Of a stretch of 64,000 nt of DNA, positions 6,553 to 34,722 are shown in pieces. The notes beneath the pieces were generated by a model. It was given only the letters and a program-made list of their open reading frames with translations, made no database searches and had not been told where the DNA came from. How positions within the stretch are numbered: the stretch's first letter is position 1; each line of letters begins with the position of its first letter. The stretch is from an uncultured virus (IMG/VR IMGVR_UViG_3300028809_000684) (Duplodnaviria > Heunggongvirae > Uroviricota > Caudoviricetes). Location of the stretch: the IMG/VR virus record IMGVR_UViG_3300028809_000684. One strand, 5' to 3'. Made by a program: the position numbers and the translations under genes.

Positions 6553-6581
6553 AAAAGACCCGCAGCAAACGCTGCGGGTCT
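6553..6581 (-). terminator. Intrinsic terminator after the TROVE gene
   Basis: AGACCCGCAGC-GTTT-GCTGCGGGTCT followed by TTT. Confidence 0.7.
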
Positions 6582-6601
6582 GGTGAGGGATCGATCGCGA
6601 G

Positions 6602-8227
6602 CTACTTCACGAAGCTCGCCATCACGGCAGGAACGTCGGCCGACGCGCCGACGATGTCGAGCTGACCGGCATCCTTCGGGTCAGCGACCGAGAACCGCGT
6701 GGCCGTCAAAGCACACACGATGAGTTTGGCCGGACGGTTCATCTGCTCGCGGTACATCTGCAGGGCCTGGGAGGCGTGGATCTGCCCCGCCCAGCTCTCG
6801 TTGTCCGTGTAGATGACGAAGACGTCGACCTCGATCTTGTGGGCCAGAGCGTACAACATCGGCAGGGCGCAGTCGGTCCCACCGAAGTTGAGCTTCCGCA
6901 TCTCAGCGATCGCTGTCGGAATCGTGTCCCGGACGCCAATCGCCAACGGCGTCACCGCCGCAGTGTCGTACCGGCCGTTACGACCCGCCGTGAAGGCAAC
7001 GACATGCGTCTCCTCTTCCGTCCGGATCGGGATCAGAGCCAGAGCCGTCGCCGCCTCCGCCGCCGAGAGACCGGGCACGCTCGCGACGTGGCTACTGTGC
7101 ATACTCCCGCTGACGTCGACGCCGAGCAGGTACTTCTTGTTCGTCGGCTCCAGGTACTGGAAGGCCTTGTAGAAGCCGTCGTCGAGGGCGGAGATGATCC
7201 GTTGATCGACGTTCCAGGTCAGGGACCCCTTCACACCCTTACCGTTCGCGTAGACCTTCGAAGCGAGCAGAAGAGCGAACGGGTGGACCCGTTCCTTCTT
7301 CAGCCGATCCGGGTTGGTCAAGGCGTTCGTGACGAACCTGGTCGTGCTCGACAACGGCTTGATGAGGTCGATGGACGTCATCTTGCCGAGGTTTCGCACC
7401 ATCGCCGTCAGCCCCATGTGCGGCAGGAGGGCCTCCCACACCTTCGGCTCGTTGAGGTACTCGGTCGGGATCGCTTCCCGCGGCAGCTGGTACGTCTCGA
7501 TCGCCTTGATGATCTCCTTGGCCGACGTCGCCGCCTTCGCAGCTTCGAAGCCCAGAATCGCGGGAGCCTCGCTGCCGGCACGGCCGTGGGCGATCCAGTC
7601 GAACACCTTGCCGTGCGGACTGTCGGAAGGCACCTTCGGCTTCGACAGCCGGAGGACGTCGCGATGGGACCACGCCTTGCCGCCTTCCGAGACGACTCGC
7701 GACTGATACTTGACGGCCTGATAGGCAGCCTGATCCGCCGGCCGGCTGAGATACCAATTCTGAATGGCACGCTTGAGGCCGCGACCCCAGCCCCGGAACT
7801 GCTCGACGGCATCGACGAACTGGAACAGGTGATAGCCCGTCCGGCAGATGTCGTTCAACGCAGCGAGGGCCTGCTGACCGAGCTCTTCCTTCTGGCCGGC
7901 GAGGTACGCCAGGACGAAGACCGCCTGGTCGTTCTTCGGCGCCAGGGCTTCGAGGCTGATCCGGCGGGTCATTTCGAGGACACGCTTGGCGTCCTCCTGC
8001 ACGCACTTGGCCAGGACGGCGATGCTGTCCTGCGTCATCTTCTGTTCGGTGACGTAGTACGATCCGCCCATCGTGCCGAGGATCAGGAAGCGTTCAAGCT
8101 GCTTCCAGTGATCAACGACGAACGAGAAGCCGCCAGCGTTGTTTTTCTCCATCGGCTTGCCGGGGATCGGCTGCGACTGCGGAGTCTGACGGGTGGAAGC
8201 CGAACGTGCGTAGCGTGACGCGTTCAT
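6602..8227 (-). CDS. rsr: Ro60-related TROVE domain RNA-binding protein
   Basis: NNAGGFSF, RFLILGTMGGSYY, GWGRGLKRAIQNWY, KYQSR, ALLPHMGLTAMVRNLGKMT; vWA DVSGSM; GGTDCALPMLYA; YTDNESW. Confidence 0.97.
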   Translation of the reverse strand: MNASRYARSASTRQTPQSQPIPGKPMEKNNAGGFSFVVDHWKQLERFLILGTMGGSYYVTEQKMTQDSIAVLAKCVQEDAKRVLEMTRRISLEALAPKNDQAVFVLAYLAGQKEELGQQALAALNDICRTGYHLFQFVDAVEQFRGWGRGLKRAIQNWYLSRPADQAAYQAVKYQSRVVSEGGKAWSHRDVLRLSKPKVPSDSPHGKVFDWIAHGRAGSEAPAILGFEAAKAATSAKEIIKAIETYQLPREAIPTEYLNEPKVWEALLPHMGLTAMVRNLGKMTSIDLIKPLSSTTRFVTNALTNPDRLKKERVHPFALLLASKVYANGKGVKGSLTWNVDQRIISALDDGFYKAFQYLEPTNKKYLLGVDVSGSMHSSHVASVPGLSAAEAATALALIPIRTEEETHVVAFTAGRNGRYDTAAVTPLAIGVRDTIPTAIAEMRKLNFGGTDCALPMLYALAHKIEVDVFVIYTDNESWAGQIHASQALQMYREQMNRPAKLIVCALTATRFSVADPKDAGQLDIVGASADVPAVMASFVK

Positions 8228-21450: not shown

Positions 21451-22620
21451 TCAGTTGGTCGACGGGAGGTCGACCTGTTCTCCGTCGTTACGAGCGATCA
21501 GCTTCGCGATGACGGCGCCGTCGGTGTTCTCGCTCAGGAACCGAACGGCTCCATCAGCGAAGACAGCCTGAGCACCACCCACATGGAAGCTGTAGATCTC
21601 GTCGTTCGGGCCACAGTTGTTGGTCGTCCACGGGCAACCCGGGGTCGGGCTGGTCGGTCCACCGGTCGGACGATTGTTGTTGTTGATCAGACGATGCGTC
21701 GAACCAGCCTGAGCCGGCGGGCCGGACACACCACTGCCGTTGTCGGGATCAGCCCACCGATTCGGGCACCGGCTGGCCGAGCCCGATCCGGAAGCGTCCT
21801 TGCAGTTGTCCGTGGTCCCACCGTTAGCGGTGGAGGCCAGGTACTTGCTGCGGATCCCGCCGTTGGCAGTGAGGTACTGCTTGCCGGCGTCTTCCGCGAT
21901 CGCGACCGTGTTGCTGGTTCCGTCCGTGATCAGACCCATCGCGGTGCCGCCCAGAGACAGAGCTCCATCGCGACGCGAGTTCCGATCCGTGGACGTCGCC
22001 GGATTCCGCCGGCCGAGGGCCACCGTCGTCGCCGAGGTCCCCGTCAGGTCCGTCGACGCGATCACGATGTCGGTGTAGACGGTCGGCATGTAGTCGGTCT
22101 GACCGTACCCCATCTCATCATCGACGTAGACACCGTTGCTCGGGCAGAGCAGGGCGGCGATCTTCGTCTTGGCGGCTTCCCGGTTCCGGTACTGCGGCGA
22201 GGTCGTGACCGTGCTGGCGGCGTTGTAGTGGTACTTCAGGTCCATCGTGTTGTACACGGGCGCCTGATCGAAGTACGGCAGCAGCGACGTGAACGTCGAA
22301 TGCGGATCGAACGCCGTGTCGTGCTTCGTGCCCACCCACTGACCGTTGGTGAGGGTCAGCCCCTCGGTCGCCAGCCCGGACGCCTGCGTGGCCGTCCAGT
22401 TCGTTCCTTCCCCACCACTCGGGAACCGCTTGTAGGCGGACTCGTAGTTGTGGAGAGCCAGTCCCATCTGCTTCAAATTGTTCTTGCAGGTGCTGCGACG
22501 AGCAGCCTCGCGCGCCTGCTGGACCGCTGGCAGCAGGATTGCCACCAGGACTGCGATGATCGCGATGACCACCAGCAGCTCAATCAACGTGAAACCCCGA
22601 CGCAAAGAAGAACGTGCCAT
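21451..22620 (-). CDS. DUF1559 prepilin-type N-methylation protein (Planctomycetota family)
   Basis: [77 protein letters not shown] (H-X9-DG). Confidence 0.97.
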
Positions 22621-22734
22621 CGGAAAAACCCTTGGCCTGTCACTCACAGGCAGAGGCCGTCTGAGACGGCGGATGTGGAGCGAATGCTCCAAAACAAATG
22701 CCAGGAGTATTGCACCCCTGGCACCTGTGACTTG

Positions 22735-24439: not shown

Positions 24440-24624
24440 GATGGTTCCTCGGGTGAAAGTTGCGGCTCCGCCACACGGCTGGAACCATTGAACCGTGCGA
24501 GTTTAGCCTTAACTCCTGCTATAACCCTGTGATCAAGATGGATGAACTAGCGGGAGCGACTGTCTGTAAGCATGGCCCTTCTGCTGACCTTCCTGCCGGC
24601 GCACCAGTTTCCTACAGGATGTAA

Positions 24625-24774
24625 CGCTCGCCAGGGCTGTGGGTGCATTGCCCGGAATCCTGGCCACTTACTCAGCGTTCCACGGGTGGTCCTGAGCGGC
24701 TAGCGCTTCAGGCCTCATCCGTGCTCGCCCCTGGCAGCGGGGCTAGAAACAGAGGTTGATTGTCAGAGCCTCTG
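24625..24774 (-). ncRNA. omegaRNA-like scaffold, copy 1
   Basis: Homologous to the RNA at the 3' end of the TnpB-like gene; four co-varying stems; invariant GAACGCTG and CACAGCCC. Confidence 0.8.
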
Positions 24775-24880
24775 CTCTTGGACTGTTCGGGCTTGAGTCG
24801 AAAATGGCTCGTGCCTGACTGCGACGTACAGCGGCCTGCGCAGCGGAGGAGCGTTTCTGCGTTAATCTGGCCAGCAGGGA

Positions 24881-24946
24881 CCACAACATCAGGATCGAGA
24901 CGTGGTGCTAAAGGTCCTCACGTTCTACCGCCACAACATCAGGATC
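24881..24946. repeat. 16-nt direct repeat CCACAACATCAGGATC (x2)
   Basis: Exact copies at 24881-24896 and 24931-24946. Confidence 0.9.
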
Positions 24947-24956
24947 TAGATCCAAA

Positions 24957-25107
24957 CATTGCCGGGGCTGTGGACACATTGTCCTGAATCCCGGCCACTT
25001 ACGCAGCGTTCCGCGAGCGGTTCCGAGCGGCGAGCGCATTCAGACCTTACTCGCGCTTGGCCCCGGTGATGGGCCTAGACATCGGGGTTGAAAGTCAGAG
25101 CCCCTAT
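24957..25107 (-). ncRNA. omegaRNA-like scaffold, copy 2
   Basis: Same architecture; P2 loop ATCACCG. Confidence 0.8.
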
Positions 25108-25424
25108 TCGGATGCAGCAGCGACTGCCGACTTCTTGGCCTTGTGGCGGATCGCCTGGGTGACCTGGCGCTCCGTCGTGACGATGGCGTGCTTGTGGCTG
25201 GTTCGCATGGCGTCCCAGCGGCCGGCACTGATCCCGACGACAATCGCGTTCGGGTTCTGCTTCTGAACTCGCACGAGCTGCTGCTCAGCGAACTCAGCAT
25301 TGCAGAAGATCAGCATCCGCCCCTTCGGATCAACGAAGGGGACCGGCTGCGGATCTGATGGAGTGAAGATGGCCCACCGGATCGAATGCGACCGGTGGCG
25401 AAGAGCGGGTTCAAACTTGGCCAT
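25104..25424 (-). CDS. Hypothetical protein
   Basis: AAGGA RBS; stop codon overlaps scaffold copy 2. Confidence 0.6.
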   Translation of the reverse strand: MAKFEPALRHRSHSIRWAIFTPSDPQPVPFVDPKGRMLIFCNAEFAEQQLVRVQKQNPNAIVVGISAGRWDAMRTSHKHAIVTTERQVTQAIRHKAKKSAVAAASE

Positions 25425-27402: not shown

Positions 27403-28099
27403 CGAATACTCCTTGAGGTTTCAGCCGACTGATCGCACAGATGGCGTCAGCGGCCAAGACGATATCCGACAGCAAAGCGCTGTCAAAGATAATGCGAACC
27501 GCAGGGACTTCCTGTCCGTTGCGAGGCGGCAAGGACGTTGCTCTCACCTCCAGAACAGGCAGCCACCGGAACTCGCGTGAGTGAAGCCACAGGAACTTGT
27601 CCCCGACGACCACCTGAGCAGCCGCTGCCTCGTAGATGTCTCGGCCGGGTGCCAACCCACGCTCGTACACCAGACTTGCCAAACCGTCGAGGTTGGGCAC
27701 CAGCGAGGCCAGAGACTGATTCGTGCGAATGAGCTTGTCCTCCGTGCGTCGAAGGTCGTTTTGAAGCTCATAGACCAGTCCTTCGACCGCCCCACTGACC
27801 GTATCGTCATAGGCGTCGAACTTGACGTGATCGACAGAAATCACTGCCCGCACCATTCCCGAAGGAGTGGTCTGGACGCGAATGAAGTTGATGGGCTGGA
27901 GTCCATCGTATTCGCGTGTCTCAACCCAGAACGCTTCAGCGTGAAAGAACCCTTCGAACTCTCCAGTTTGCAGCTTTACGGCCGTCTCAATGGACTTCTC
28001 GTCGAGCTGCGGTACGGCCCGAGCAAGCTCGCGGCGAAATTCGAGAGCGAGGTCGTTAGCTTCGAGCGCTGACTTGGGCAGTTTGATCTCGTCGGTCAT
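27317..28099 (-). CDS. Hypothetical protein
   Basis: 260-aa ORF; ATGA coupling. Confidence 0.6.
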   Translation of the reverse strand: MTDEIKLPKSALEANDLALEFRRELARAVPQLDEKSIETAVKLQTGEFEGFFHAEAFWVETREYDGLQPINFIRVQTTPSGMVRAVISVDHVKFDAYDDTVSGAVEGLVYELQNDLRRTEDKLIRTNQSLASLVPNLDGLASLVYERGLAPGRDIYEAAAAQVVVGDKFLWLHSREFRWLPVLEVRATSLPPRNGQEVPAVRIIFDSALLSDIVLAADAICAISRLKPQGVFVDESTSGSDPARAGGVESPDPGAHLAGS

Positions 28100-28648
28100 G
28101 GTTGGCGACTGAGCCTTTCAAAGAGGAGATCCATCTCCAGCAGGTTCTCCGGTGCCAGTTCATCCGGCACGAAGTTCCAGCGGACATGGGTGTCAAAGAA
28201 GATCACCTCGATCCGCCGGCCATATCGGGAAAGGAGGTACGTCGGTGGGCCGTTGTTGGTGGCGTCCTCAAAGCCCTCCTGGAGGAGAACCGCGGGCGTG
28301 AGTTTGACCAGGCGCCGTTCTTCCATCGCCACAAGATGGCCGGCGAGCGTCATGAGGTCACGACGCTTCTGGCTGATGTTGACGTGCGGCACGGGGCCGA
28401 CGTCAGATCGGTAGGGATCCAAACCCTGGCGGCTGTCCAGCTGCCGCTTGAGTGCTTCAACGAATGCCGTTCCACGAACGATCATTCCAGTCCTGTCCTT
28501 CCTGTTGAGGCTTCTTAACCCAAGCCTGATGCTCGTACGTGTCTGCAAGGACAACGAGCACAAAGGCAAACGTGATGAATACGATCATGGCCGCGAGCAC
28601 CATGAGCATTTGAATGAGAATGTCCATAGTGCGTCGACTCCCTGATAT

Positions 28649-28863
28649 CTGCGGATGAGACGGCCACCTCTCGTAACTGCGGGATTCTTCACCGGCATTG
28701 TCCTGCGGGGTGCCGGCAGCTGCCTGCATGCGCCATGCTCTGCTTTCGTGAACGATGGTCCTGCACAGAACCTAGAGCCGAGACCTGCATCCATTGGGCT
28801 GAGCTGCCTCGTGCGTGTGAACCTGCCCTCCATAGCAACCTGCCGAAAGGCCTCCTAGCGAAC
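28649..28863 (-). repeat. GCAG-punctuated array of unique 12-24 nt segments (putative guide array)
   Basis: Plus-strand CTGC at 28649, 28677, 28703, 28720, 28724, 28740, 28761, 28785, 28804, 28823 and 28840. Confidence 0.7.
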
Positions 28864-29008
28864 GTCTCGGGGCTGTGGACACGTTGTCCTGAATCCCGAC
28901 CTTTCACAGCGTTCCGCGAGTGTCTCCAGGCGGCTAGCGCTCTGGATCTGATTCGCGCTTCGCCCTTGCAGCGGGCGTAGACACAGGGGTTGATAATCAG
29001 TGCCCCTG
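28864..29008 (-). ncRNA. omegaRNA-like scaffold, copy 3
   Basis: Same architecture; P2 loop GCTGCAA; ends CCCCGAGAC. Confidence 0.85.
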
Positions 29009-29057
29009 CTCTGGGAATTGTTCAACGTAATCTCACGTTCAGGACGTGGCACATTGT

Positions 29058-29386
29058 CTGCAATACGGACAGCAGACGCTGCCTAACCGGATTGTGCTGC
29101 CTTGATCCTGCGACATTCCCCGTAGACCTGCTGACGTACGGACTTCTTTCTGTCATGACACGATCGTCTGACGTGATACTGCGTCCGAGCGGAACATCAC
29201 TCGCCGTGTCGGTGCTGTTGCGTCCCTGAGGTCATTGCAGTGCGCCAGTGCCGGAAGCTGCGTCCGAACCCTAACGAGGTGTACTCGAACGTCCGAATCT
29301 TGCCGCAATGGTATCCTGTCGCTCCTTGCAAAGCCGACACACTTCTCCAGGGACTTGCAGTCGAGTTTCAGGCGGGTGCACCGGAC
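29058..29386 (-). repeat. GCAA/GCAG-punctuated array (putative guide array)
   Basis: Plus-strand TTGC at 29218, 29235, 29300, 29326, 29355 and CTGC at 29058, 29079, 29097, 29108, 29128, 29179, 29258. Confidence 0.6.
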
Positions 29387-29534
29387 GTTTCGGGGCTGTG
29401 AGCACATTGCTCGGAATCCCGATCTCTTTCTCAGCGTTCCGCGGTCGAACCGGGGCGGCTAGCGCTCCCGGTCGACACCGCGCTTGGCCCTGGCAATGGG
29501 CCTGATCCAAGGAGTTGAAGGTCATTGCTCCTGG
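29387..29534 (-). ncRNA. omegaRNA-like scaffold, copy 4 (overlaps the TnpB-like stop codon)
   Basis: 5' hairpin spans the TGA; P2 loop ATTGCCA; ends CCCCGAAAC. Confidence 0.85.
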
Positions 29535-30823
29535 CTCGTCTCGCCTTCGTCGGAGGACTCTTCCTCCTTCTCCGGCGGCGTCTTGGCACGAACCACGATC
29601 CGCTTCGCACGAGCCTTCTGTTCGATCATGGTGCCAAGCATGGCCCACGGGAACGAGGGTGCGAAGGAGTGGTCCGTATCGTCATAAACGATCTCCGCCA
29701 CTTTACGGCGGGCTGCGTAGGCAACAAGTGAGGCACTCACCTGGTGGCACAGCGTCTGGAGCCGGTTCCGGTCACGCCGGGCCTTCTCCTGAACGTGAGC
29801 TTGGAACGGCTTTCCGTCCCGCCGCGGTTTCCGATACTCGGCCTTGCGGTCGTCGCTCAGTCGAGACAACTCCCGCAGGTGGGCCGCGTGCCGGTTCGAA
29901 ATCATCCGGGCGTTATCGGCGTTGTAGTTCCAGATCCGCTGATCGTCCATGTCTACGCAGACCAGGAGCGAATCCTTGTCTGAGCGAACCATCAGCGTGT
30001 TGTCGGGAATGGACTCTCCCTTGATGGGGAGCCACCCGACGATCTTCGCCATCAACCGCCGGCTCGACCGGTTCCCGTTTCCGTTCTCTCGGTCCTTGTT
30101 CGCCGGCCGGTGATCGCCGGGCTTGCCTTCGATTTCCAGCAGCGCCGCCTGGCCCAGGAGCTCGGGATGCTCCATCAGCCATTCGATCGCCTTCGTCTGC
30201 CGCTTGAACTGCCGGCCGGCAGAGAGCATCAGCTCGTGCCGCACTCCGCCGACATTGGCGATCAGGAAGATCCGCTCGTCCTTGCGTTCCAGCTTGAACC
30301 CGTCCGGCCGAATGGGAACCGGCTGCGGAAAGCGGAAGCTCGGCGGCGCAATCGCGTTTCGCCAGATCATGTCATATCGCAATTTGCGATAGCGCTGCTC
30401 GACTGACATCAGAACCGCCGAAGCGGTTCCCTTGCCGATCGTCTGCCACGATGCCAGCTCTGGTCCCATCCCGTACAGGTAGATCGGCGGCATCTTCGGC
30501 AGTTTCTCCTCGCCGGGACCGCGGACAACGTCGTTCGCCAGCAGCTTCCGGATCGCCCAGTTGCTGAGGTGAGTCACTGCCTCCTGTGCCTGCCGCAGGA
30601 TCGGGCGAAAGACCTCCCAGTCCGCCGAGGCGATCGGGATCGTCATCGCGCGGATCGCGTAGGTCTTGCCCCAGCACTCCGAGCAGGTGAGCGTACTCCC
30701 AACGTTCTTCCAACCCCGCGGCGGGCGAGGCTTCCCTTTCACGGTCGGCTTGACGTTGCGCAAGGCGCCGCAGACCGAGCAAGCAATTTCGACAGTTTCA
30801 GTTGACGTTGTCGCCGTCTCCAT
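29522..30823 (-). CDS. Nuclease-dead TnpB/Cas12f-like RNA-guided protein with an N-terminal Zn ribbon
   Basis: Bridge helix and RuvC-II region RNRLQTLCHQVSASLVAYA..IVYDD..FPWAMLGTMIEQKA...IVV; no GxDxG RuvC-I motif; ends before the Zn finger and RuvC-III; N-terminal CSVC...CSEC. Confidence 0.8.
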   Translation of the reverse strand: METATTSTETVEIACSVCGALRNVKPTVKGKPRPPRGWKNVGSTLTCSECWGKTYAIRAMTIPIASADWEVFRPILRQAQEAVTHLSNWAIRKLLANDVVRGPGEEKLPKMPPIYLYGMGPELASWQTIGKGTASAVLMSVEQRYRKLRYDMIWRNAIAPPSFRFPQPVPIRPDGFKLERKDERIFLIANVGGVRHELMLSAGRQFKRQTKAIEWLMEHPELLGQAALLEIEGKPGDHRPANKDRENGNGNRSSRRLMAKIVGWLPIKGESIPDNTLMVRSDKDSLLVCVDMDDQRIWNYNADNARMISNRHAAHLRELSRLSDDRKAEYRKPRRDGKPFQAHVQEKARRDRNRLQTLCHQVSASLVAYAARRKVAEIVYDDTDHSFAPSFPWAMLGTMIEQKARAKRIVVRAKTPPEKEEESSDEGETSQEQ

Positions 30824-31172
30824 TGAGCCCTCCGAAGGTAGTGAGTAGAAGTGCCTGTACCTTTGCCTTCATCTTCTCGATGATCGCGAGCCACTCGGCC
30901 TCAGTCTCGATCTCAACGTGCGGCATCTCCGACTGGAAGAGACGCCACTTATGTGCGCCCATGCCGATTCGAGCAACACCGCGATCGGCGCCAGCTTTCT
31001 GTGCGTCTTCATCGAGCCGCTGCAATATGGTGTCCGCAAGTGCCAGCGACTTCGGGACCACGATCTTCCCTTCCGCGTCGCGGAAGGGAATTTCATAACC
31101 GCCAAGGTAACTAAGCATAAAGAACCAACGAATCGATGGCACCCCGGTTACATTGACCCTGATAGGTTCCAT
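30798..31172 (-). CDS. Hypothetical protein directly upstream of the TnpB-like gene
   Basis: GAGG RBS; overlaps the TnpB-like start. Confidence 0.65.
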   Translation of the reverse strand: MEPIRVNVTGVPSIRWFFMLSYLGGYEIPFRDAEGKIVVPKSLALADTILQRLDEDAQKAGADRGVARIGMGAHKWRLFQSEMPHVEIETEAEWLAIIEKMKAKVQALLLTTFGGLNGDGDNVN

Positions 31173-31181
31173 GACGTCCTC

Positions 31182-31215
31182 AAAAGAAAAGAGACGGCAG
31201 GAAAGTCCTGCCGTC
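31182..31215 (-). terminator. Intrinsic terminator
   Basis: GACGGCAGGA-CTT-TCCTGCCGTC followed by TCTTTTCTTTT. Confidence 0.7.
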
Positions 31216-31594
31216 CCGGGATAGCTACTCTCCGTCAGCCAGCTTGCGGTACGCCTCGATCTGAGCGAGCTCGGCTGCGGTGAACAGCTCGGGCTGCGTC
31301 GGCTGAGGCATCCGGGCTCGCTTGTAAAGGCGAGCCAGCCAGAAGTGATCGATGTGGTAGCCGCTACGGTACGCTTCCATCGTCACCAGCTTTCCGGCTT
31401 CACGCGTGGCCGGCCAATCCGGGACCGGAACGTATTCCGAAGTCTCGGGACAGGCCAGCTTGAAGTTCGGTTGCGGTCGATTCAGTGGCCGGTTCTGAGG
31501 TTGCTTTCCCTCTTGCCGATACCACGTCGCCGCCAGAGAGGTGTGCTTCCTCATCACCAGACAAAGGCGCTTGAGGAGGGCACAGGTTTCGTAG

Positions 31595-31978
31595 TTACAG
31601 GGGTGGAATCCGTACCTGGATTCCGTCTCTTTGCGTTCGGTGACCTGAGTCATCGTTGGGTTCTCCCAATTTGAGCAGTTGATATCTCTTGAGGAGACGC
31701 CGTGTCTCCCCACTGACAAGACCTGTGGCAATCGCTGTCGCCTCGTTATTCCGTGCCGGCTCATGGAAGAGCACGAACGGAATGTGACAGTGCTGGAGGT
31801 GGGCAGCGCAAGCATTGAGCTGCCGAAGATCCTTGACCCCACACAAAGCAAGATGGGGATGTTCTTCCCACGTCAGATTCAAGAGGTGTTTAGCCTCCAG
31901 AGCTGCGTGGACCGCCTGCACGGCCCGTTGGGGCGGCGGTAGATCTTGTCGGACGAAGATGTAGAGATACTGCGTCAC
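31595..31978 (-). CDS. Peptidyl-tRNA hydrolase Pth2-like protein
   Basis: YIFVRQDL....AVQAVHA and FHEP...TAIA motifs. Confidence 0.75.
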   Translation of the reverse strand: MTQYLYIFVRQDLPPPQRAVQAVHAALEAKHLLNLTWEEHPHLALCGVKDLRQLNACAAHLQHCHIPFVLFHEPARNNEATAIATGLVSGETRRLLKRYQLLKLGEPNDDSGHRTQRDGIQVRIPPL

Positions 31979-32032
31979 TGGGAGGTGCGGTCAATGTTCC
32001 ATTGTGAGGTCCTCCTTCTGAAATGAACCCTG

Positions 32033-33533: not shown

Positions 33534-34722
33534 CTTCTACCTTTTGAGCGGGTACAGCGGTTCGATCAGAACGTCGCCTGCAACCCACTTCTCCTGAGAG
33601 GTAAAACCACTCGTATATAGTGACGCAATTCCGCTGCCAATGAAGGCGTCGCTGCCGAACGCCATGTGCGGCCGGAAGATCATATCGCCCAGCAACAAAA
33701 CATGCGGCCGTTTGGAGCCCATCAGCAGAGGGGCGCCGTTGGTGGTCTGAAAGACACCAGCCACGTGATTGGGATCACCGGTGTCTTGAACGATGAAGTT
33801 CATCGGGATGTGAAACGCCCGATCACCCATCAGGAGTTTGGCCGGGTTCGTCCCCAGGAGGTTGTCCATCTGGTGGTGCCTTTCTCATGAGTTGCCAGAC
33901 TCGATAGCGGTAGTAGATCCACTGCGCGGCCATCGTCGTCAGGAGCAGTGCGCGTTCATTGTGCGACATGTCCTTGATGGCGACGCCACCGAGGCGGTTG
34001 TTGTGGAAGTACTTGTAGTGCTTGTTGACGAACAAGACTCCGCAGAGCATGTTCAATGACGACCCGAGCCACATGCCGGCGAGCTCAGCACGTGCACCAA
34101 ACACGACACTGAGCAGAAACCCGCCCGCGACAGTCACTAGGAACGAGGTACAGATCGCGTAGAAGAACTCAGCGACGAGGATTCGATGGAGAGGTCGCAC
34201 TCAATGGTCTCCGATTTTGTAACGACACGGCGAACACGCACTGTGCTCAGGTGCTTGATCGTGTAACCCGCATTGAGCAGGTCAGCGATGCGAGTCTGGT
34301 ACCAGACCGCGAGCTCCTCTGGCGTATCGCGAACGATGATCCGCTTCCAACCTTCGGATGTCTTCGTCTCCAGCGCATAATCCAACTGGATCTCAGGCTC
34401 ATTCGGATCCGGCTCGACCGGACGCTCGATACGATCCAAGGCGGTGTTGTAGTCGGGATCATCCGCACGACGATCCCAGTTGCCAAGTACATCCGGCATA
34501 GCTATCTCCGCGGGTAGTGGGGACCGCCGATCACAGGACCCGGGACGCTGACCTTGACCGGAAAGCCCTCCCAGTCCGCGATCTTCTCGATCTCCGGATT
34601 CTTGCGGTCGAGATAGACGAAGAGGGTCGAGACGGCGGCGCCGATCCCAACCCTCCCCTCTGATCCGACACGCTCCTGGAGGCGTTCAGCAGCCTCCTGC
34701 ATCTGCTGTGGGTTGGGCTCGT

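Follow-up and report, generated by a model that had tools for sequence, protein, structure and literature searches.

We describe a run of GCAG tetranucleotides in a 64,000-nucleotide stretch of DNA (the window) from an uncultured soil phage of the Caudoviricetes (IMG/VR record IMGVR_UViG_3300028809_000684). The run lies on the minus strand, and its existence is confirmed. We tentatively read it as a collapsed, degenerate guide array of the CRISPR type, part of a nuclease-dead Cas12f-like (dCas12f) system of the phage, and regard this reading as possible rather than probable. We hold the motif to be truly connected with the guide system, because the enriched tetranucleotide coincides with the invariant repeat end of related phages, the run occupies the position of an array and its spacing is even and guide-like. 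The features concerned are the following, in window coordinates.

28649..28863, minus strand: GCAG run; 11 GCAG at 16–28-nt spacing with one GCAGGCAG doublet, noncoding, with little structure
28859..29018, minus strand: scaffold B (scaffold 3 of the initial annotation); nhmmer E = 3.9e-23; the run lies directly 3′ of it
29522..30823, minus strand: gene for a 433-residue Cas12f-like protein with an N-terminal CxxC...CxxC zinc ribbon, ending soon after the RuvC-II region

The initial annotation had placed the run right after a scaffold, and a true guide-RNA scaffold of a TnpB/Cas12f-type protein does lie directly 5′ of it. The run adjoins scaffold B and is 660 nt from the Cas12f-like gene, with both effector and scaffold in its neighborhood.

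Number and spacing of the GCAG motifs

The first letters of the minus-strand motifs are at 28843, 28826, 28807, 28788, 28764, 28743, 28727, 28723, 28706, 28680 and 28652. A recount of 28649–28863 gave these 11 copies against a single one on the plus strand, with the intervening segments as the initial annotation had written them. Averaged over the phage, each strand has 0.69 GCAG per 100 nt, or about 1.4–1.5 per 215 nt. The claimed enrichment withstood shuffling: dinucleotide-preserving shuffles of the 215 nt contained a mean of 4.7 GCAG (s.d. 1.7) and 11 of 20,000 reached 11 copies, which is a conservative test since such shuffles retain the GC, CA and AG steps made by GCAG itself. Any 4-mer at all reached 11 copies in one of 3,000 shuffles. 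The gaps between successive sites are 17, 19, 19, 24, 21, 16, 4, 17, 26 and 28 nt. Their coefficient of variation is 0.33, an evenness that random placement attains with P = 0.00067, or with P = 5e-6 when the GCAGGCAG doublet is counted as one site. The segments between the motifs are unique and regularly interspaced, as in a CRISPR array.

Beyond GCAG itself there is only a weak G at position +1 (GCAGG at six of the 11 run sites; +1 G at nine of 19 aligned sites). GCAG is all that the 19 sites share on alignment, no near-identical direct repeats of at least ~20 nt were found in the run, and Tandem Repeats Finder and a repeat finder detected no array in its region. The run is unusually unstructured: its RNA fold has z = +2.31 and all 200 shuffles fold at least as well. 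A conserved peptide, which the initial annotation had named as an explanation that would undo its own, was not found; the open reading frames (ORFs) of 82, 72, 90 and 67 residues across the run have no Pfam or PHROG match, and the motifs are spread over the three reading frames 4/4/3, with no conserved ORF spanning them. This coding explanation was rejected.

In the whole 229-kb phage genome, denser clusters of other 4-mers exist (TCGT 22, CTGC 12). Three other minus-strand clusters of at least nine GCAG occur (9–12 sites), all within ORFs, and one frame dominates in the two that were frame-checked (10 of 12 and 8 of 12 sites); the run is the only noncoding GCAG cluster of at least nine in the 229 kb. 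No Rfam family matched positions 27500–31500, a scan for promoters and terminators found nothing exceeding shuffles, and the GC skew does not switch around the locus. Sequencing runs listed for the locus comprised seven soil metagenomes and no RNA run; among the contigs compared with it, every match was either an identical piece or another copy of the scaffold, and the GCAG run showed no variants.

Cas12f-like protein, scaffolds and arrays of related phages

Three further IMG/VR phages, G403, G404 and G405 (loci L016, L017 and L018), encode homologues of the Cas12f-like protein with 33–37% identity, and each also carries the scaffold RNA core in one or two copies. All three loci hold true arrays with a period of 65–66 nt, repeats of 35–36 nt and spacers of ~30 nt: three repeats in L016, two to three in L017 and six to seven of 35 nt in L018, whose spacers measure 29–31 nt except for one of 20 nt. 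The 65-kb relative G404 has a second scaffold (L068, ~6560–6960, minus strand) followed by a different, 32-nt repeat with spacers of 37, 16 and 16 nt; here the end of the repeat occurs as a tandem duplicate (GAGTCGCAG twice, GCAGGCAG) and the array trails into a unit of GCAG, 24 nt and GCAG that lacks a full repeat. In all four repeat:scaffold duplexes the whole 32–36-nt repeat pairs with the scaffold tail, starting at the end of the core, at −38 to −49 kcal/mol, so that the scaffold is a trans-activating CRISPR RNA (tracrRNA) in these relatives.

The sequence CGCAGG, directly before the spacer, terminates four of the four repeat types in the related phages, from which we infer that the repeat of this family ends, on its guide-proximal side, in GCAG(G). 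By our own rough estimate, the chance that the enriched 4-mer of the run would also be the repeat terminus is ~1%. The description of the run as a CRISPR-like array in the initial annotation stands in part: true arrays with repeats ending in CGCAGG occupy the homologous place in relatives and the spacing is even, but a 4-nt repeat has no docking handle. The same annotation called the segments guide-length, and their 12–24 nt do fit the 16-nt spacers of the second G404 array and the 14-nt optimum published for dCas12f (PMC13472631).

The Cas12f-like protein is presumably nuclease-dead and, to judge from its sequence, would bind DNA without cutting it. Neither the ORF itself (no Pfam or PHROG match) nor any of its 28 homologues (none with a Pfam domain) is assigned to a domain family. 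A profile of the 28 homologues matches Cas12f1 in the PDB with E = 1.2e-10 and a 'nuclease-deactivated Cas12f' (9n9c) with E = 1.1e-5, the latter match spanning part of the protein only. Foldseek searches with an AlphaFold2 model (mean predicted local distance difference test score 87.4) returned AsCas12f (E = 3.7e-16) and the dCas12f entry 9n9c (E = 9.2e-13). A RuvC-II-like block aligns to residues 285–373 of a 500-residue Cas12f1 and the profile stops ~15–20 positions later; since the protein ends shortly after this block, it lacks the C-terminal zinc finger and RuvC-III. At the RuvC-I and RuvC-II positions, none of the acidic residues is invariant across the 28 sequences. The closest homologues (P0002–P0006), encoded on short Logan and JGI contigs, are 48–60% identical. 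A related-locus search with the 433-residue protein (P0001) returned the same phage only, GenBank phages gave no match, and a degenerate scaffold pattern found 25 loci in IMG/VR, of which three carry the gene, all already known.

The structured scaffold of ~155 nt is present in five copies in the 229-kb phage, all on the same strand; four lie in the window. These copies, the sequences behind A and B and the gene that follows the run are as follows.

29382..29542, minus strand: scaffold A; nhmmer E = 2.9e-21; overlaps, by its 5′ hairpin, the final codons of the Cas12f-like gene
24962..25114, minus strand: scaffold D; nhmmer E = 1.3e-11
24592..24782, minus strand: scaffold E with a 44-nt hairpin; nhmmer E = 1.9e-9
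31837–31989 of the phage genome (G001), outside the window, same strand as the others: scaffold C, from a profile search
28822..28858, minus strand: opening ~37 nt of the run, with two GCAG; a small hairpin that ends ...GGAGGGCAGG is predicted here
29009..29381, minus strand: flank behind scaffold A; eight GCAG, of which five at 29131–29061 are spaced 20, 11, 18 and 21 nt apart
28457..28625, minus strand: gene for a small hydrophobic protein, the next gene after the run; ATG at 28625 with GGGAG 9 nt upstream, the start being inferred from sequence

Scaffold B is 71% identical to A over 152 nt. A consensus structure was built from 10 scaffold copies of five sources (the phages G001, G403, G404 and G405 and a bacterial genome, G002), and 18 of its 24 pairs show compensatory changes. 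Copies C, D and E diverge immediately past ...CACAGCCCC; for A and B, divergence sets in ~12 nt further on. It is the scaffolds, not the GCAG run, that have the make-up of an omegaRNA-like array, with repeats of >60 nt, a sharp 3′ boundary and unique sequence thereafter. Within 330 nt after the scaffold core, GCAG occurs seven times behind A, 12 behind B, four each behind C and D and three behind E (~2.3 expected). A smaller cluster, spaced like the run, lies immediately upstream of B and four GCAG lie within ~95 nt upstream of E; there is no cluster upstream of C or D.

Interpretations of the run

Each scaffold of the window's phage is followed by unique sequence, E by a hairpin ending in GGCAGG, and there is no ordinary array; a k-mer scan of the whole phage found no regular CRISPR array anywhere. 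On the reading that we tentatively adopt, the array of an ancestor would have shrunk. The first two GCAG behind B would represent a fused half-repeat ending a single-guide RNA, the guide of scaffold B would start at ~28821, and the nine later GCAG, at 16–28-nt spacing, would be remnants of repeat ends that separated units of guide size, whether former or auxiliary ones, of which only the first would be physically tied to a scaffold. Positions 28822–28858 may thus be the half-repeat that closes single-guide scaffold B, with the guide beginning at 28821; by eye, the GGAGGGCAGG end resembles the repeat ends GGGAGCGCAGG of L017 and L018, while 73 of 300 shuffles score as well in local alignment. 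Behind E, the 44-nt hairpin (24592–24635) has a 3′ arm ending in GGCAGG, a stability of −20 kcal/mol and 90% of the ensemble (z = −2.0; six of 200 shuffles fold as well), and E looks like a tracrRNA fused to a half-repeat. This hairpin fits the scenario of half-repeat fusion set out in PMC10691335.

Several points weigh against a collapsed array. The repeat of a distant bacterial relative (G174) ends in GGAAGG, and CGCAGG is thus not universal in the family. The repeats of the relatives align only weakly to the run, the best (the second of G404) being matched or beaten by 15 of 300 shuffles. The −1 C expected from CGCAGG is not enriched (6 of 19 sites) and nothing is conserved beyond GCAG. The flanks behind A and B align overall (72.7% identity; four of 300 shuffles score as well), and three of the 11 GCAG behind B face a GCAG in the flank of A, the fraction given by this identity (0.73^4 = 0.28), which is no sign of selection. 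Decay by point mutation of an array with a 65-nt period would not yield a 19-nt period, it is difficult to envisage how the greater part of each repeat could be lost so exactly, and the regular spacing favors a function or a unit-making process over plain decay. The 19-nt period and the regular spacing are unlike simple decay, and two functional alternatives are therefore kept alive.

In the first of these, which we consider unlikely, the run is a working multi-guide mini-array: the repeat has shrunk to its four guide-proximal letters, and the ~10 guide-sized units, with segments of 12–24 nt as guides, are read by dCas12f with the five scaffold genes acting in cis or in trans. The minimal contact would then be, for example, a 4-bp pseudoknot with CUGC in the first loop of the scaffold or direct recognition of GCAG by the protein. 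The regular spacing (P = 0.00067) speaks for this, as do the identity of GCAG with the invariant guide-adjacent repeat end, the lack of structure, as in free guides, and unit sizes that fit the 16-nt spacers of G404 and the published finding that 14 nt is optimal and >10 nt sufficient (PMC13472631). The complement of GCAG, CUGC, is found in the loop of stem 1 in scaffolds B and E and likewise in the four scaffolds of viral relatives (G405, G404 primary and secondary, and G403), but covariation is weak: the complement between stem-1 loop and guide-adjacent sequence averages 5.0 nt for own pairs and 4.05 nt for cross pairs, no more than a suggestive difference. Among the GCAG-anchored units, one pair (29261/28723) is identical at nine of 10 positions from the junction (P = 0.022 for random anchors); the flanks align as a whole, and an old duplication of scaffold plus flank explains the pair. 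Four letters are moreover too short for the repeat:anti-repeat duplex used by the relatives, and pairing of a scaffold tail with its own flank was equaled by many of 200 shuffles (A 117, B 175, C 191, D 34, E 85), so no pairing of the type V-F style is detectable in the window, apart from a weak hint for A. The proposal of the initial annotation that each segment is a separate guide found no supporting sign here; 175 of 200 shuffles pair with the tail of B at least as well as the run does. Nor did the targets with a shared flanking motif that it envisaged come to light in the phage or, above chance, in 401 Planctomycetota genomes. The units of the run and the five post-scaffold sequences (first 16 nt, 14-nt windows) gave chance-level matches to the phage and no shared flanking motif. 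A search of window positions 28626–29390 against 401 Planctomycetota genomes gave a best E of 0.0026 per genome, which is at chance level, with the two best matches in unrelated contexts. The 15 spacers of the relatives had no targets in the four viral genomes, and two candidate guides of a bacterial homologue (L044) matched their own genome at chance level only. Conservation of GCAG between the A and B flanks, at background, is a further count against working guides.

The second functional alternative, in our estimation rather unlikely, takes the run as a binding or processing platform in which the GCAG sites, on an unstructured transcript or on DNA, serve the dCas12f complex or an unrelated factor of phage or host. 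The role of such a platform would be to fix where guide RNA B ends on its 3′ side, to titrate a factor in the manner of a sponge RNA or to regulate the operon beginning at 28625. A short bare motif with 16–28-nt spacing, strand specificity and little secondary structure is what this would predict, the run is bordered by a guide-RNA gene and the following gene of that strand, and the clusters upstream of B and E are of a similar kind. Sponge RNAs such as CsrB/RsmZ, which sequester proteins, carry a short motif every ~17–20 nt in noncoding RNA. They differ from the run in that its motif is GCAG and not GGA (GGA follows GCAG at only three of 19 sites) and has no known partner protein. No candidate binder was found and the neighboring ORFs are without family matches; no such cluster exists upstream of C or D or in other noncoding regions of the phage, and the sites do not keep to a constant multiple of the helical repeat of DNA. 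That the motif equals the repeat end of the relatives would also be a coincidence unless the binder were the dCas12f complex. Chance or base composition, a GC-rich noncoding stretch noticed post hoc among 256 4-mers and 229 kb, seems to us very unlikely. It could draw on the denser clusters of other 4-mers in the genome (CTGC reaches 12 elsewhere), on the lack of an extended motif, on the background level of conservation between flanks and on a Poisson tail which, multiplied by all windows, motifs and strands, comes to ~0.1–0.5 (a rough estimate of our own from the genome rate). Against it stand the conservative local shuffles (11 of 20,000; any 4-mer, one of 3,000), the independent regularity of the spacing (P = 0.00067), the nature of the other dense clusters, which are tandem or in-frame coding repeats, and the coincidence of the motif with the repeat terminus of the relatives at exactly the place where they have arrays.

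The collapsed-array reading can be set beside several known systems. The cluster of array-associated, C-terminally truncated dCas12f proteins described by Hoffmann, Wiegand et al. (Nature, 2026; PMC13472631) has guide RNAs predicted upstream of its arrays and targets at efflux promoters. In so far as that report details the cluster, the present family shares with it the Cas12f-like fold, the absence of the C-terminus, including part of RuvC, and, in the relatives, a conserved structured guide/tracr RNA upstream of arrays; the chromosomal homologue at L044 lies directly upstream of an efflux-adaptor-like gene, as in the published efflux-promoter example. It differs in its setting, a 229-kb soil phage with five stand-alone scaffolds and no regular array. 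The 28-member family could belong to the published clade, but 9n9c matches it over part of the protein only (E = 1.1e-5). Altae-Tran et al. (PNAS, 2023; PMC10691335) set out a scenario of an array minimized to a half-repeat and fused to the tracrRNA, with the 3′ end of the repeat kept, and describe tandem 'omegaRNA-like arrays'. Tandem units of scaffold plus guide, as in those of dCas12f-sigmaE systems (PMC10691335; Hoffmann et al., 2026), recur here (A, a decayed copy and B; D and E), but Pfam detects no sigma family among the 23 neighboring ORFs; the passages of these reports on dCas12f-sigmaE systems make no mention of repeat ends pared to 4 nt and lined up in a run behind a scaffold. More generally, no repeats reduced to a few letters were met in the portions of the dCas12f literature covered, in which no search was aimed at them.

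The arrays of L016–L018 agree with type V-F CRISPR-Cas12f in their 35–36-nt repeats, ~30-nt spacers, tracrRNA whose anti-repeat is at the 3′ side and order of repeat and spacer, the repeat being 5′, whereas the window has a 4-nt 'repeat', 16–28-nt units, no detectable anti-repeat pairing and a protein without RuvC-III. With TldR (Wiegand et al., 2024), as far as described there, the system shares a phage-borne, nuclease-dead, RNA-guided DNA binder and a guide RNA 3′ of the gene that overlaps the gene end; TldR arose from TnpB without a CRISPR stage, whereas the 433-residue family groups with Cas12f and its relatives keep arrays.

As presented in PMC13472631 and PMC10691335, the proposed route from array to minimized array to fused single-guide RNA for dead Cas12f rests on its end states. 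Both are found within this family, as true CGCAGG-ending arrays in the relatives and as five stand-alone scaffolds in the window's phage. A run that is a true remnant would record the way in which arrays collapse. Were its units in use, a Cas12f-type complex would need far less than has been assumed to be loaded with a guide, with a bearing on the evolution of guide repertoires without Cas1–Cas2 and on the design of compact multiplexed guides, and a truly working array would be an extant intermediate linking CRISPR arrays with omegaRNAs. A jumbo soil phage, probably of Planctomycetota, is added to the genomes that host RNA-guided DNA binders.

Scaffold flanks, bacterial relatives and gene neighborhood

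The flank behind A contains TCGGACGCAG twice as an exact 10-mer, with two worn copies, and TCGGACG three times; the latter is complementary to A's own tail and twice continues into CAG. Hexamers complementary to the own scaffold tail number six in the A flank (1.8 expected, P = 0.03) and three in the B flank (1.05 expected, P = 0.13). A search of the flanks with an nhmmer model of the five scaffold copies found nothing, for which the short targets may be the reason. A decayed partial scaffold, comprising the 3′ part, lies between A and B at ~29026–29069 (minus strand) and suggests that units of scaffold plus flank were duplicated in tandem, and decayed, more than once. Scaffolds C, D and E are distant from the Cas12f-like gene, each in a noncoding gap upstream of genes on the same strand. 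Behind D there is an exact 16-nt direct repeat on the minus strand, one copy (24931–24946) within the presumed guide and the other (24881–24896) 50 nt downstream.

The family is rare in bacteria, being present in two of the 401 Planctomycetota genomes searched. A Planctomycetota metagenome-assembled genome (MAG), G174, has on contig 62 (L047, 704–1362) a regular array of 10 repeats, with a 36-nt repeat and a period of 66 nt, near a second, fragmentary homologue of the Cas12f-like protein. A Planctomycetaceae MAG (L044, 3010–7194) encodes a chromosomal homologue of 404 residues with a diverged scaffold, directly upstream of a long, efflux-adaptor-like ORF with a CPICGMDL metal-binding motif. 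In two of the related phages an ORF of 226–227 residues (L017 4178–4858 and L018 4006–4689; 77% mutual identity) lies between the dCas12f-like gene and the tracrRNA; it matches the ParB N-terminal domain weakly, with E = 0.0077, which is below the Pfam cut-off, and has no counterpart in the window's phage.

Since the run adjoins the start of the gene at 28457–28625, it also lies within the upstream region of that gene. The window spans the ends of the 229,210-bp IMG/VR record, as a permuted copy, at ~33550–33697. The first and last 148 bp of the record are equal, so that the genome is circular or terminally redundant. The 229-kb soil phage probably infects Planctomycetota. A 413-residue ORF of the window (21451–22692, minus strand) combines DUF1559 (SBP_bac_10) with an N-terminal methylation motif; this family is hugely expanded in Planctomycetota and would hint at the host.

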